IMG/VR virus record: IMGVR_UViG_3300025112_000010
Location: 1-64,000 of that record
Direction: 5' to 3' (one strand)
Source of the DNA: a virus
Length of the DNA stretch: 64,000 nucleotides
This document shows positions 2,095 through 16,697 of this stretch, piece by piece. The notes under the pieces are model-generated. The model was not told the DNA's origin and ran no database searches. It was given only the letters and a program-made list of their open reading frames with translations. Made by a program: the position numbers and the translations under genes. The first letter of the stretch is position 1, and every line of letters starts with the position of its first letter.

Positions 2095-2190
2095 TCTCCG
2101 GTTGGCGTCTCGTTTCGTTAACTTCTATAAGTATCTTATCGACCGGCTCCCCTGCCGTCAACAGGGAAACCGGAAAACTTTTGAGAAACT
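2095..2190 (-). promoter_or_regulatory. Promoter and 5-prime UTR cassette, copy 1. Minus-strand reading: AT-rich upstream block, -35 TTGACG, 17-nt spacer, -10 TA(A/G)AT(T), then ACTTATAGAAGTTAAC and the GGAGACC RBS.
   Basis: Conserved block TTAACTTCTATAAGTA...CCGTCAACAGGGAAACCGGAAAACTTT(C/T)GAGAAA, read directly. This copy reads TAAGAT at -10. Confidence 0.6.
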
Positions 2191-2430
2191 TTAGAAAGCT
2201 TTGATGGTGATCAGCGGGTTAGTCTTCAGCTTGTCCACTACGGTGTTGAAAGCCTCTCGGTTCTCGGTCACGAAGAGAACCTCGGCACCCTTCTCTGTAG
2301 CGTACAGATAGGGGTATTTCGCGCAACGTGTGACGAAGTGGTTGGCGACGGCGACTGAGGGGAAAACAAAAACGCAGCTATTCGAGGTGTCTACATAGCT
2401 GCGGCCTACTTGTGGGCATCGTCGTGTCAT
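2191..2430 (-). CDS. Hypothetical protein (about 79 aa; start at MTRRCPQ).
   Basis: ORF track; start moved to the ATG at 2428-2430, which is preceded by GGAGACCAAGACC. Confidence 0.55.
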   Translation of the reverse strand: MTRRCPQVGRSYVDTSNSCVFVFPSVAVANHFVTRCAKYPYLYATEKGAEVLFVTENREAFNTVVDKLKTNPLITIKAF

Positions 2431-2495
2431 GGTCTTGGTCTCCATTAGAGGGGTGTTACAAATCATCGGGGGTTATGGATAAGTGCCGAGGTTTC

Positions 2496-2813
2496 CTAAC
2501 CGATGACGTCGGCAAGGTCGGCTACATCTTGAAACGTGCCCTTCCAGGCACAGCAGTAGTGCAGGCACACCACCCGTTTGGTCTTGGGCAGGTAATCGCA
2601 CCGGTTGCCATGGTAGCTGTCGGGGATGTTGGGATCATCCACCGGCTTGTCAGCCAGAGGTCCCTTGCAGCGGTCGCAGGTGAGGTCGGTCGCGGCGGCT
2701 ACCCCTTCATCGGATAGGATGAAGGACTTGCGGGTGCGACATCTGTGGTAGTGCTTGCGGGCCTCTGCTACAGTGTCGAACCCGTCGTATCGTCCTACTT
2801 GGTGGAATGGCAT
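2496..2813 (-). CDS. Cys/His-rich small protein; possibly a zinc-finger or HNH-like fold.
   Basis: ORF track; CDRCKG ... YHGN ... CLHYCC pattern; RBS GGAGACCAAGAC. Confidence 0.5.
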   Translation of the reverse strand: MPFHQVGRYDGFDTVAEARKHYHRCRTRKSFILSDEGVAAATDLTCDRCKGPLADKPVDDPNIPDSYHGNRCDYLPKTKRVVCLHYCCAWKGTFQDVADLADVIG

Positions 2814-2825
2814 GTCTTGGTCTCC

Positions 2826-2903
2826 TGCGGGGTCACTTGGTTAACTTCTATAAGAATCTTAGACTCCGGCTCCCCTGCCATCAACAGGGAAACCGGAAAC
2901 TTT
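2826..2903 (-). promoter_or_regulatory. Promoter and 5-prime UTR cassette, copy 2.
   Basis: Same conserved block. The -35 here is TTGATG. Confidence 0.55.
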
Positions 2904-3089
2904 CTAAGATTCTTTTTCCGAGAAGAAATTCTCGTGGAGTCCCTTGTAGGGCTCCACCGGAGTGGGGAAGGAGCAGGCACCATGGTACACAACGGCTCCG
3001 GGACGGGGTTTGCCGCAAGGCTTTCCGCACTTGCCGCAGTTGCCCGTGCCCTTCTCGGGATGCTCGAATTTGTGTGCTTCGCGTTTCAT
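2904..3089 (-). CDS. Small Cys-rich protein (61 aa; CGKCGKPCGKP).
   Basis: ORF track trimmed to the ATG at 3087-3089, which follows GGAGACCTGACC. The upstream part of the track ORF is just the translated cassette. Confidence 0.5.
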   Translation of the reverse strand: MKREAHKFEHPEKGTGNCGKCGKPCGKPRPGAVVYHGACSFPTPVEPYKGLHENFFSEKES

Positions 3090-3099
3090 GGTCAGGTCT

Positions 3100-3190
3100 C
3101 CGTCAGGGGTTTCGTTAACTTCTATAAGTATCTTATCGGCTGTCCCTTTCGCCGTCAACAGGGTATTTGGAAAAGTTTCTGGAAACAGGG
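3100..3190 (-). promoter_or_regulatory. Promoter and 5-prime UTR cassette, copy 3.
   Basis: Conserved block read directly. Confidence 0.55.
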
Positions 3191-3277
3191 TCCTCAAGAC
3201 GGAGGCACCCTGGATACCCTTTTTGCTCTTTCAATGCTCGCCAAGTATCAGACGAGGAGCGTAAATGTCTCCGGGCA

Positions 3278-3661
3278 CTAGGCACCCCCCTTTAGTTGAG
3301 ATTTGAGTCGGAACAATTCGGTCTCCAAGGCTTCCACTTGGACGGTGAAGAAGGCGTTAGCGATAGCCAGCTCCACACCCTCAATGGCGATGATGACTGC
3401 CGCAGTGGCTTTGTCCTCTTCGTGTGTGTCCTCTGGTGGGGAGAGGTCCATCTCTCGGGCTTGGTAGCCTTTGTGGTTGCTGATGTATTCGCAGCAAAGG
3501 CAGAGGAAATCTTGGCAGGGCTGATGGCACTGGTCACAGTTTTGGGTTTGGCTTCTGATGGTAGTCTCCTTTTCGAGGTGGGTTGTGTTGCTTCTACCTC
3601 TTACTAACGGAGCCCCTCTCCAAACGTCCGAGAAGTTCTCAGAAACTTTCGTAGCCCACAT
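3278..3661 (-). CDS. Hypothetical Cys-rich protein (CDQCHQPCQDFLCLCC).
   Basis: ORF track; start uncertain (GTG at 3685 or ATG at 3661). Confidence 0.4.
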   Translation of the reverse strand: MWATKVSENFSDVWRGAPLVRGRSNTTHLEKETTIRSQTQNCDQCHQPCQDFLCLCCEYISNHKGYQAREMDLSPPEDTHEEDKATAAVIIAIEGVELAIANAFFTVQVEALETELFRLKSQLKGGA

Positions 3662-14857: not shown

Positions 14858-14944
14858 TTCAGGGGGTTGGTTAACTTCTATAAGTATCCTAGACGAGGTC
14901 CCGGTCCCCGTCAACAGGGGAACCGGGAAAATTCCGAGAAAGTT
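14858..14944 (-). promoter_or_regulatory. Promoter and 5-prime UTR cassette, copy 12.
   Basis: Conserved block. Confidence 0.55.
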
Positions 14945-15427
14945 TTAGCTGGGCACTCGCGAGGCTTTTCGGCTCTCCTCGTACTCCCAGCATTGCTCCT
15001 GAGTCACGGGGTAGTCCAGGACAGCCTGGAGGGCTCGCAACTGCTTGGTCAGCTTCGCCCTGCGGGTCCTGACGTGGGCAGCAGAGGCTTCCCCGTCGCA
15101 GGACAGCATCTCGGGCTCCAGCTCGCCGTAGACGGCGTGGATCGCTGCCATCGTGTGGTACGTGACAGAGTCGAAGGGGTTGAAGCGGATCGCCTCGGCG
15201 GGACGAGTGACGACCTCTACCGGCAGCATGGGGGCATTGCCCGAGGGTGTCATCAGCGAGTAAGGTACTCCCCATACTTCGCCCTTCTTCGAGCGGCTCC
15301 CGCGATTCTCCAAGATCTCGACCTTGGCCTTCTTCGGGTTCAGCTTGACGATCTTGCCGAGAGTCTGCTCTCCGCGAGTCCTGCCAAAGGTGACGGTCAT
15401 TCCTACGGTTGCGTGTGCTTTCATCAT
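14945..15427 (-). CDS. Hypothetical protein (160 aa).
   Basis: ORF track; RBS GGAGACCAAGACC. Confidence 0.55.
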   Translation of the reverse strand: MMKAHATVGMTVTFGRTRGEQTLGKIVKLNPKKAKVEILENRGSRSKKGEVWGVPYSLMTPSGNAPMLPVEVVTRPAEAIRFNPFDSVTYHTMAAIHAVYGELEPEMLSCDGEASAAHVRTRRAKLTKQLRALQAVLDYPVTQEQCWEYEESRKASRVPS

Positions 15428-15444
15428 GGTCTTGGTCTCCAGGT

Positions 15445-15533
15445 TTCGAGGGGTTGGTGTTAACTTCTATAAGTAATCTATCGACTGTCCCGGCTCCCGT
15501 CAACAGGGAAACCGGAAAACTTTTTGGAAAGTT
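15445..15533 (-). promoter_or_regulatory. Promoter and 5-prime UTR cassette, copy 13.
   Basis: Conserved block. Confidence 0.55.
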
Positions 15534-15758
15534 TTAGAAGCCTTCGTCGATCAGGTACGCCACCACCTCGACAGCCGCCTTGCGGGTCTTGCTGATGTCG
15601 TGGAGTCGCGAGGCGTAGCTGTCGTCCACGAAGAAGACTCCCTCTTTCAGGACCGTCTGAGCCAACCAACCGCCATCGGTCTTTTCCACGCGGATGTAGC
15701 GACCCTTGTGTTCGGTGATGTAGGCTCCGCTGAAGGTCTTTGTGAAGTCTCTGGTCAT
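15534..15758 (-). CDS. Hypothetical protein (74 aa).
   Basis: ORF track; RBS GGGAGACAAGACC. Confidence 0.5.
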   Translation of the reverse strand: MTRDFTKTFSGAYITEHKGRYIRVEKTDGGWLAQTVLKEGVFFVDDSYASRLHDISKTRKAAVEVVAYLIDEGF

Positions 15759-15774
15759 GGTCTTGTCTCCCGTT

Positions 15775-15862
15775 TGGCGTCCAGTTGGTTAAGCTTCTAT
15801 AAGTTATAATCGACTGCTCCGGTTCCCGTCAACAGGGAAACCGGAAACTTTTCAAGAAAGTT
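15775..15862 (-). promoter_or_regulatory. Promoter and 5-prime UTR cassette, copy 14.
   Basis: Conserved block. Confidence 0.55.
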
Positions 15863-16108
15863 TTAGACGTCGTAGCCTTGGGCGGCGAGCATCCCCTTGG
15901 TCAGATGACGAAGGAAGTGGAAGACGTCCCCGTTCTGAAAGTCGATCTTGACGAGGGTGTCGCGGATCGAGGCGTGATGATCCCCGGCGTGGACACAGAT
16001 GTAGTCAACGATGTCTTGCCAGACCAGACCGTAGTGGCCTTCAATTCCGATGAAGTCGATCAGCTCTACGCCTTTTTCCTGGATCAAGTTTTCGAGGTAA
16101 GTTCTCAT
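15863..16108 (-). CDS. Hypothetical protein (81 aa).
   Basis: ORF track; RBS GGGAGACCAAAACC. Confidence 0.5.
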   Translation of the reverse strand: MRTYLENLIQEKGVELIDFIGIEGHYGLVWQDIVDYICVHAGDHHASIRDTLVKIDFQNGDVFHFLRHLTKGMLAAQGYDV

Positions 16109-16124
16109 GGTTTTGGTCTCCCGT

Positions 16125-16205
16125 TTGCGTGTGGTGTTTCGTTAACTTCTATAAGTAATCTATCGACTGGGATCTTAGCCGTCAACAGGGATTCCGAGAA
16201 AGTTT
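16125..16205 (-). promoter_or_regulatory. Promoter and 5-prime UTR cassette, copy 15.
   Basis: Conserved block. Confidence 0.55.
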
Positions 16206-16697
16206 TCAGCGGAGACAGGCTGCAAGACGTTTGACCCTACGTTTTAGGGTGTTTTCGTCGGAATTATTATCCAAAATAATATCGCAAAGATCTTTGGAAA
16301 CGGTGTTTGAGATGCCAGATTCTGGTGGTTTCCGCTCTGCAGCGTCCACCCAGATCGATAAATCGAAGAGTCCCTTCTCGCGGGCGTCGAGGAATTCTAT
16401 GCGGTTTCTTATCCCCACGTACATATCGTGTTGGGCGAAGATCTCCCGCGTGAGTCTGGAGGGGTCGTCGGCGTTGTACGCGCAGATCATGTCGAACCAT
16501 TCCTTGCGATGGTTGCCACGATCCTCGAAGGCTTCCTGTGGAGTGTTGTAGCCATACTTGACTTTTAGGGCATCGAACAGAAAGAGTTTGCAGGCGAACA
16601 TACTTGACGAATCGAAGGTTATGTCAAGTGCTTGTTCGAGCAGTTCCCCAACGGTGTCTTTGCCGTGGCGGGCGTAGCCGCAGATCATAAGTTTCAT
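16206..16697 (-). CDS. P-loop protein; dNMP-kinase-like.
   Basis: MKLMICGYARHGKDTV resembles the phage dNMP kinase P-loop (GxxxxGKDT); ATG overlaps the stop of the HD gene. Confidence 0.45.
   Translation of the reverse strand: MKLMICGYARHGKDTVGELLEQALDITFDSSSMFACKLFLFDALKVKYGYNTPQEAFEDRGNHRKEWFDMICAYNADDPSRLTREIFAQHDMYVGIRNRIEFLDAREKGLFDLSIWVDAAERKPPESGISNTVSKDLCDIILDNNSDENTLKRRVKRLAACLR

Follow-up and report, generated by a model that had tools for sequence, protein, structure and literature searches.

The window analysed here is a stretch of 64,000 nucleotides (nt) of viral DNA (positions 1 to 64,000 of IMG/VR record IMGVR_UViG_3300025112_000010) from an uncultured marine tailed phage, in which all genes are on the minus strand and whose genome extends past base 64000. 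It encodes a tape-measure protein, a family-A DNA polymerase, a DnaB-like helicase, a primase and a MoxR-type ATPase, together with methyltransferases, glycosyltransferases and a group of recombination genes (a UvsX-like recombinase, RusA, and Cas4-like and SbcD-like exonucleases). When the first 20 kb are compared by megablast with 50,697 deposited phage records, no match is returned, and the DNA polymerase is about 26% identical to that of the nearest known phages; the best exonuclease matches are in phages of Aeromonas, Vibrio and Pseudomonas (39-45% identity), which is a weak hint, from sequence resemblance, as to the host. Downstream of the replication genes is a hyperplastic region of small open reading frames (ORFs), nearly all of them ORFans, and many of the gaps between them are filled by copies of one repeated element, here called the cassette, which is the subject of this report.

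The repeat family is real, although its numbers differ from those first proposed. An earlier note on this DNA, made by a model from the letters and their ORFs, had quoted two strings from the region; both are in place and are far beyond chance, with 4 and 2 near-exact matches against 0.00 expected. A repeat search returns a 79-nt family of 13 copies plus one additional divergent copy. In the 64-kb window a regular expression anchored on CTGTTGAC...CTTATAGAAG finds 14 copies, and an nhmmer profile built from these recovers the identical 14 at E values of 1e-13 to 1e-24, the next-best match having E = 0.026. All 14 are on the minus strand and within 2086-16210, and neither method finds a copy between 3.2 and 9.36 kb or in the other 48 kb of the window. 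The count of 15 given before is thus replaced by 14, and the cassette occupies about 14 of the roughly 35 gaps of the region rather than nearly every one. The assignment of one small gene to each cassette stands for six or seven copies; the remaining cassettes head groups of two to five ORFs, and the copy at 9409 heads a block of about 6 kb that begins with a 311-amino acid (aa) ORF. The peptide KILIEVNETP in the ORF track is, as had been recognised, the cassette itself translated (AAG ATA CTT ATA GAA GTT AAC GAA ACC CCT in the copy at 3161). The cassettes, the stand-alone copies of a 16-nt ribosome-binding site (RBS) module, which is a second repeat beside the cassette, and the region that contains them are as follows; J3, J4 and J6 are gene replacements relative to a sister genome that is described below.

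16106-16210, minus strand: cassette 1, from the stop codon TGA to the ATG at 16108; 81-aa ORF 16108-15863; nhmmer 16210-16139, E 7e-20; TTGACG, 17 nt, TAGATT
15756-15867, minus strand: cassette 2; 74-aa ORF 15758-15534; nhmmer E 6.5e-20
15425-15538, minus strand: cassette 3; 160-aa ORF 15427-14945; nhmmer E 3e-23; match in the sigma-70 scan
14840-14949, minus strand: cassette 4; 149-aa ORF 14842-14393; RBS GAAGAC (degraded) in the window, GGAGAC in the relative
14285-14394, minus strand: cassette 5; 68-aa ORF 14287-14081; nhmmer E 8.8e-24
13974-14085, minus strand: cassette 6; 86-aa and 138-aa ORFs, 13976-13245
13134-13247, minus strand: cassette 7; 66-aa and 92-aa ORFs; cassette not in the sister genome
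12479-12585, minus strand: cassette 8; 71-, 49-, 46- and 56/85-aa ORFs
11607-11718, minus strand: cassette 9; 141-aa and 74-aa ORFs
10824-10948, minus strand: cassette 10; sub-type CTTATATGAG; 129-, 40-, 71- and 133-aa ORFs
9320-9437, minus strand: cassette 11; sub-type CTTATATGAG, TTGTTGAC; nhmmer E 1.7e-13; heads the cassette-free block of about 6 kb, first ORF 311 aa
3087-3187, minus strand: cassette 12; 61-aa ORF
2811-2919, minus strand: cassette 13; -35 is TTGATG; 105-aa and 79-aa ORFs
2086-2195, minus strand: cassette 14; 91-aa ORF 2088-1813; nhmmer E 2.5e-23
13659-13674, minus strand: stand-alone RBS module GGAGACCAAGACAATG, no cassette upstream
12859-12874, minus strand: stand-alone RBS module, right breakpoint of replacement J3
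12250-12265, minus strand: stand-alone RBS module, variant GGAAACCGAGACCATG, right breakpoint of J4
11165-11180, minus strand: stand-alone RBS module GGAGGCCAAGACCATG
10249-10264, minus strand: stand-alone RBS module, left breakpoint of J6
2428-2443, minus strand: stand-alone RBS module GGAGACCAAGACCATG
1813-16210, minus strand: hyperplastic ORFan region, about 35 small genes, downstream of the replication genes

The cassette, read along the minus strand, always spans from the stop codon of the upstream gene to the ATG of the downstream one and is oriented as the genes are. In 12 of the 14 copies this stop codon runs directly into an A-tract (TAAAAC or TGAAAAG), and the cassette therefore makes up the whole intergenic spacer. 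The stop is followed by phased A/T tracts of the form AAAnTTT with a period of roughly 11 nt, the A/T fraction being 0.8-1.0 from about -40 to -67. Some copies contain GAAAGTTTT here (inverted) and others GAAACTTTT (direct), such that it is the tract pattern that is conserved and not the partial dyad symmetry that had been ascribed to this block. The A/T tracts lead through TCCGGTTTCC to an invariant TGTTGAC(G), whose -35 hexamer is TTGACG in 13 copies and TTGATG in one, and then through a spacer of 17 nt (plus or minus 1), free to vary in sequence, to a -10 hexamer of the form TAnnnT (TAGATT, TAAGAT, TAGGAT, TAAAGT, TAACTT or TAAGTT). Next come an invariant (A)CTTATAGAAG (its form is CTTATATGAG in the copies at 10916 and 9409), a (C)TTAAC, and a leader of 34-52 nt composed of 40% A, 28% C, 23% G and 8% T, followed by GGAGAC(CAAGAC) and the ATG. 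Twelve copies have 43 nt between the -35 and the downstream block; of the other two, one has 42 nt and one 44 nt. The order given in the earlier note (A/T block, TTGACG, 17 nt, TAGATT/TAAGAT, ACTTATAGAAGTTAAC, GGAGACCAAGACnATG) is that observed. There are 13 copies of the RBS module, GGAGACCAAGACnATG, every one of them on the minus strand and within 2.4-16.1 kb; six precede genes that lack a cassette.

To assess conservation, the 28 copies of the window and of its sister genome, which likewise carries 14 cassettes, were aligned. The invariant columns are TGTTGA-G, the opening T and A of the -10, and CTTATA..AG, and the closing T of the -10 hexamer is conserved in at least 90% of copies. An independent scan with a sigma-70 consensus accepts 11 of the 14 window copies as TTGACG-17-TAnnnT. 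The cassette thus has a -35 close to TTGACA, a TAnnnT -10 at 17 plus or minus 1 nt downstream, and an AT-rich stretch upstream of the -35, as do the strong sigma-70-like promoters of the promoter-early-stem-loop (PeSL) units of T4-type phages. That the invariant columns are exactly the positions contacted by sigma-70 supports, from the sequence, a classic sigma-70 promoter layout joined to a standard translation start, and the reading of these blocks as -35, 17-nt spacer, -10, leader and RBS that had been put forward agrees with the pattern of conservation.

A direct view of what the cassettes bound is provided by the sister, IMGVR_UViG_3300025133_000100 (L040; 63 kb), which was found by scanning viral contigs with the cassette pattern; it is the one true relative among the matches, the 41 others being chance singles. 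It is 93-96% identical to the window. A single 116-nt indel separates the two genomes over the 12 kb of core genes at window 28360-16103, and the adjoining 14 kb contains seven non-homologous replacements. Homologues of the replaced ORFs are not found anywhere in the other genome. The left boundaries of the replacements are at the ATG that follows a shared RBS module, or at most four codons past it, and the right boundaries coincide either with the next RBS module or with the next cassette, where they are at the stop codon and A-tract or within the -35. For 12 of the 14 boundaries a cassette or RBS module is no more than 15 nt away (binomial P = 1.3e-8, these elements with a 15-nt margin making up 15.5% of the region). 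Each genome also has one cassette that the other lacks, at 13216 in the window and at 9242 in L040, and several cassettes are mosaic; that at L040 9931, for example, combines the spacer of window 14053 with the flanks of window 15506. Because both arrangements were independently assembled in other samples, they are not assembly artefacts: L119 (99.96%) and L155-L158 (100%) match the window, and L090 (100%) matches the sister. These are ORF-precise replacements bounded by repeats and accompanied by chimeric cassettes. The earlier note had suggested PeSL-like shuffling and had proposed looking in related phages for the same cassette beside other ORFs; with seven replacements, in which the same cassettes flank different non-homologous ORFs and the breakpoints fall at cassettes, that search bears the suggestion out. 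As in PeSL systems, the unit extends from stop codon to Shine-Dalgarno (SD) sequence and ATG, lies in a hyperplastic region of ORFans, and bounds the replacements.

The cassette has a narrow distribution. More distant relatives, recognised by an exonuclease of 37-44% identity (L045-L052), have neither the cassette nor a comparable repeat family, and scans of viral and metagenome collections find it only in the two genomes and as chance single matches; it is therefore seen only in two haplotypes that are about 95% identical.

The ORFs that follow the cassettes are real protein-coding genes, since the substitutions between window and relative concentrate at third codon positions (31, 39 and 119 at the first, second and third, respectively); 101 of the changed codons are synonymous and 57 non-synonymous. 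A few of the ORFs in the region match PHROG families of unknown function, and the cassette-driven ORFans have no Pfam matches. The 81-aa ORF at 16108-15863 has homologues, 30-51% identical, in unrelated phages of Vibrio, Tenacibaculum, Mycobacterium, E. coli and Leptospira, a spread that fits a widely exchanged pool of accessory genes.

A stem-loop is not a constant part of the cassette. The -35 had been placed in the loop of an inverted repeat CCCTG-TTGACGG-CAGGG in many copies; this hairpin is exact in three, a dyad of any kind around the -35 is present in seven or eight of the 14, and about half of the copies have none. A hairpin with TGTTGAC in its loop has a z of -2.2 or below in seven of the 14 window copies and is weak or absent in the others; where predicted, it occurs in three registers and relies in part on G-U pairs, one strong example being a 14-bp stem at 2164. 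Pairing at fixed columns of the 28-copy alignment (60.4%) equals the shuffled mean (60.4%, with 269 of 500 shuffles at least as high), and a claim of covariation was therefore dropped; the apparent compensatory pairs TCCGG/CCGGA, TCCAG/CTGGA and CCCGG/CCGGG failed this shuffle control. A conserved fold of the whole cassette RNA was not supported either (z only +0.9 to -2.1), and Rfam 15 at gathering threshold gives 0 matches in window 1-20000. A terminator reading was discarded too: no site with a GC stem followed by a T-run is present on the minus strand in any of the 14 cassettes, and the sequence after the hairpins is CAGTCGATAGATTAC.

We think it quite probable that the 14 repeats serve accessory genes as standard expression cassettes and double as recombination linkers. 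Each cassette would supply a host sigma-70-type promoter, with the A/T tracts at about -40 to -67 acting as an UP element or as bent DNA, transcription starting at the A or G of TATAGAAG, and a short, unstructured, A/C-rich leader bringing a strong SD, GGAGAC, to 7-9 nt upstream of the ATG. Each small gene or group, having its own promoter, leader and SD, would thus be transcribed and translated independently, most likely soon after infection; we infer from the promoter sequences that it is host RNA polymerase (RNAP) that fires the cassettes, and that it does so early. The roughly 80-110 nt shared between copies, together with the 16-nt RBS module of further genes, would serve as homology patches, and recombination between copies in the same or in co-infecting genomes, likely through the UvsX-like recombinase, RusA and the Cas4-like and SbcD-like exonucleases of the phage, would replace, insert or delete whole ORFs while leaving the expression signals intact.

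Several points weigh against this explanation. Conservation of the start-site block CTTATAGAAG, which covers the discriminator and +1 to +5, exceeds that of the inner positions of the -10 and goes beyond what plain sigma-70 recognition explains, and TATAGAAG is found also at the start sites of SP6-type promoters. Promoter activity and timing are deduced from consensus matching, and the host sigma-70 is assumed from TTGAC/TAnnnT and the strong SD. The ORFan cluster is at the distal end of one long transcription direction, a position that differs from where T7-like genomes place their early genes. The visible breakpoints, moreover, mark where homology ends rather than where strands crossed, such that the mechanism may be site-specific, and it is by inference that we favor homologous over site-specific recombination as the agent of the swaps.

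Two alternatives draw on the invariance of the start-site block. In one of these the cassettes are promoters of a phage enzyme (a single-subunit or virion RNAP, or a phage sigma factor) that reads the contiguous (C)GATAnnnTACTTATAGAAG. The segment from the -10 to +5 is indeed contiguous, about 22 nt long and almost invariant, and its TATAG with a G/A start resembles promoters of the T7/SP6 class, as the earlier note pointed out; the single-subunit RNAP idea of that note is weakened in that no RNAP gene was found inside the window. For such an enzyme, however, one contiguous block of about 23 bp from -17 to +6 would be expected rather than the bipartite conservation seen, and a TGTTGAC exactly 17 nt before TAnnnT has no role for a single-subunit RNAP. 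Outside the cassettes CTTATAGAAG is not above chance in the window, and being confined to them it is no marker of middle or late genes; phage RNAP promoters usually drive middle or late genes rather than ORFan clusters. Searches of Pfam, PHROGs and PDB sequences find no RNAP or sigma factor among the large proteins of the window, and no RNAP gene was found in the 64 kb or in the 2.5 kb beyond, which contains structural-looking genes; because the genome continues past base 64000, where such a gene could lie, this does no more than weaken the phage-enzyme explanation, which we consider decidedly unlikely on the balance of these points. In the other alternative the promoter is real and the conserved blocks are the operator of a phage regulator, either a shut-off repressor at +1 or a protein bound to the dyad at the -35. 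The invariance of CTTATAGAAG over the start site, equal to that of the -35, and the -35-centred dyad in seven or eight of 14 copies would suit it, and a second, clearly palindromic 16-bp motif elsewhere in the same genome makes sequence-specific regulators plausible. CTTATAGAAG, on the other hand, is not palindromic, the dyad is missing in about half of the copies, and its arms shift in sequence and register and are therefore a poor fit to a sequence-specific dimer; no DNA-binding protein was identified in the region. An operator role may be compatible with promoter function, but as the explanation of the conserved blocks we judge it unlikely.

There are two further alternatives. The repeats could act chiefly at the level of RNA, as intercistronic hairpins that terminate, attenuate, process (through RNase III or RNase E) or stabilise a read-through message, on the model of the stem-loop part of PeSLs or of the RNase III sites of the T7 early region. 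Strong hairpins such as the 14-bp stem at 2164 and G-U pairs that make the fold strand-specific speak for this, as does the finding that PeSL stem-loops terminate transcription (PMC2839356); yet no cassette has a terminator-like site on the minus strand, the hairpin is weak or absent in six or seven of 14 copies, neither the covariation test nor the whole-cassette folds nor Rfam lends support, and the invariant positions are in loops or single-stranded parts rather than in stems, all of which makes the proposal very improbable. It is harder still to believe that the repeats are selfish miniature mobile elements, homing or similar to miniature inverted-repeat transposable elements, that resemble promoters by accident. 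They are many, dispersed and sharp-edged, and copy positions differ between the genomes, with one unique copy in each; against this, terminal inverted repeats and target-site duplications are absent, all copies share a single orientation, their placement from stop codon to ATG is exact with a fixed distance to the RBS, no transposase or homing endonuclease was found nearby, and the conserved positions are the promoter positions. A reading of a different kind, which we regard as rather unlikely, is that the promoter cassette and RBS module form an integron-like but recombinase-independent system of cargo exchange in a non-T4 lineage. Its cargo would extend beyond ORFs, for which an RNA of about 685 nt in the sister could be an instance, and CTTATAGAAG(T)TAAC would be a dedicated site for a phage factor that could be a polymerase, a shut-off protein or a recombination helper, and so more than a piece of a sigma-70 promoter.

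Among the other features of the two genomes, we note that L040 8531-9215, which replaces window 16103-15866 and is bounded by cassettes, is a segment of about 685 nt without a convincing ORF. Its predicted fold is -286.5 kcal/mol with a z of about -5.0 (-5.5 on the other strand), and a control region of 685 nt from the same locus has a z of -2.3. Rfam searches of the segment at E of 1 or below return only noise and no tRNA is found; blastn matches it to nothing in phages, and viral contigs contain no second exact copy. The segment is possibly a new, large and structured RNA that the cassettes carry as cargo.

A 16-bp palindrome, CTCCTAATATTAGGAG, occurs in 12 copies with at most three mismatches, against 0.21 expected, between 6.7 and 60.5 kb.

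6711, 10396, 19157, 21333, 28364, 31342, 37152, 42696, 48656, 51085, 56980 and 60469: copies of CTCCTAATATTAGGAG, 16 nt each

Most copies are at gene boundaries in the replication and structural part of the genome, and TAGGAG, the right arm, doubles in several copies as the SD of the gene that follows; the motif could be an SD-sequestering hairpin or the operator of a phage regulator. The haplotype indel at window 21331 starts exactly at a copy of this motif. The sequence AAATAAAGGGGGAGGGGT(C)TTTT, a G-run followed by a T-run on the plus strand, is present at 1140-1170, 1263-1293 and 19173-19203, one copy adjoining the palindrome at 19157.

Beyond the last cassette gene, in the direction of transcription, window 1-1300 has many repeats and hardly any genes. 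It includes five tandem 24-nt units at 1-127 (each three times the 8 nt AGATCCTGCGGCCCTGCGGACCTG) and, at 279-400, two to three copies of a 43-nt unit; GAAAAAGTTGAAAAAC occurs three times on the minus strand at about 470-640. The contig of the relative ends at about window 1655. Window 1-1300 may serve as an origin or packaging site, or be an end of the genome.

The cassette-free block contains a Dam-like D12 N6-adenine methyltransferase (4631-5476) and a MazG/PRA-PH-like pyrophosphohydrolase (7772-8302), and a second DNA methyltransferase is encoded at 34391-35137. An 841-aa orphan at 21398-23923 looks like a NorD-type partner of the MoxR/CbbQ-type AAA+ ATPase at 24584-26116, from which it is separated by a 204-aa ORF (23963-24577); the similarity of its C-terminus to NorD, the von Willebrand partner of NorQ, is weak (E 0.13). 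The gene at 62150-63985 (L144 2322-5123, L159 464-2491) contains internal repeats of about 200 nt rich in Thr, Ser and Asp. Close relatives differ in the length of its product (611, 675 and 933 aa), all assemblies but one break at the gene, and its product is probably a fibre or decoration protein of a hypervariable kind. Glycosyltransferase-like genes, two or possibly three in number, are among the structural genes (44794-46536, 47374-48957 and 60257-61441), of types GT1/GT4, weakly GT2 (Pfam E 0.015-0.026, below gathering cut-offs) and GT9 heptosyltransferase-like, an unusual count for a phage of such size.

If the cassettes are expression units that double as linkers, the use of a regulatory cassette as a recombination linker, previously described for T4-like myoviruses and suggested for one archaeal virus, would have arisen independently in an unrelated, uncultured marine tailed phage. 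Homology would come in two tiers, the promoter cassette and the RBS module, and it is because the separate 16-nt module provides a second homology patch that the swaps can run exactly from ATG to stop. Recent ORF replacement can be seen cleanly in the two natural haplotypes, both of which were assembled again from independent samples. About 25 ORFans, presumably expressed, are marked off by the 14 cassettes; these, and 11 alternative ones in the relative, are good candidates for screens for host-takeover or anti-defence functions, and the cassette itself is a compact, apparently strong and portable expression unit.

Several known systems invite comparison. Lambdoid morons and integron cassettes resemble the arrangement described here in that accessory genes are carried as self-contained expression units, and integrons do so also in exchanging them at conserved boundary sequences. 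We know of no conserved flanking repeats around lambdoid morons. Integrons need an integrase and attC/attI sites and provide a single promoter common to their cassettes, whereas here each unit has its own putative promoter and an integrase is absent.

The RBS module has a counterpart in the start-associated sequences (SAS) and extended SAS of Cluster K mycobacteriophages, GGGATAGGAGCCC (Pope et al. 2011, PMC3203893). Both SAS and GGAGACCAAGACnATG are short and asymmetric, have an SD core a few nucleotides before the start codon in one orientation, and precede only non-structural genes, with unrelated gene families downstream; an inverted repeat is found upstream of about half of SAS (PMC3203893). 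The SAS sequence is, however, unrelated to GGAGACCAAGACnATG and comes from phages of another host phylum, it is not tied to a recognisable promoter, and a recombination role was not shown for it (PMC3203893), so the likeness is one of analogy only. A PeSL-like motif outside the T4 group is also known from the haloarchaeal myovirus HGTV-1, in which, in the summary of Sencilo et al. 2013 given in PMC3950731, a promoter-like box and an inverted repeat precede most ORFs of one genome arm and are proposed to act in transcription control and shuffling. According to the same summary the promoter there is of the archaeal TATA-box type, in contrast to the sigma-70 type here.

The closest parallel is with the PeSLs of T4-type myoviruses. 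These combine a strong sigma-70-like promoter and its AT-rich stretch with a stem-loop, which can lie over the -35 or -10, and with an SD and start codon; they are enriched among ORFans in hyperplastic regions and bound indels between phages about 95% identical (Arbiol et al. 2010, PMC2839356; Comeau et al. 2014, PMC4122927). The carrier in the present case is a non-T4 phage with a tape-measure protein and a family-A DNA polymerase, and the cassette has no sequence similarity to T4-type PeSLs; its stem-loop is confined to about half of the copies and a terminator signature was not detected, whereas an invariant start-site block, CTTATAGAAG, and an extra 16-nt RBS module as second homology patch are present. 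The element therefore falls outside PeSL in the strict sense, since its carrier is non-T4, its sequence is unrelated and the stem-loop and terminator half is only partly represented. It nevertheless shares with PeSLs the succession of AT-rich stretch, -35 and -10, SD and start codon, the setting in an ORFan hyperplastic region, the insertions, deletions and replacements bounded by units and, in some copies, a G-run/C-run stem-loop over the -35 like that of one of the five PeSL sub-classes, and by analogy it would appear to work as a PeSL does.

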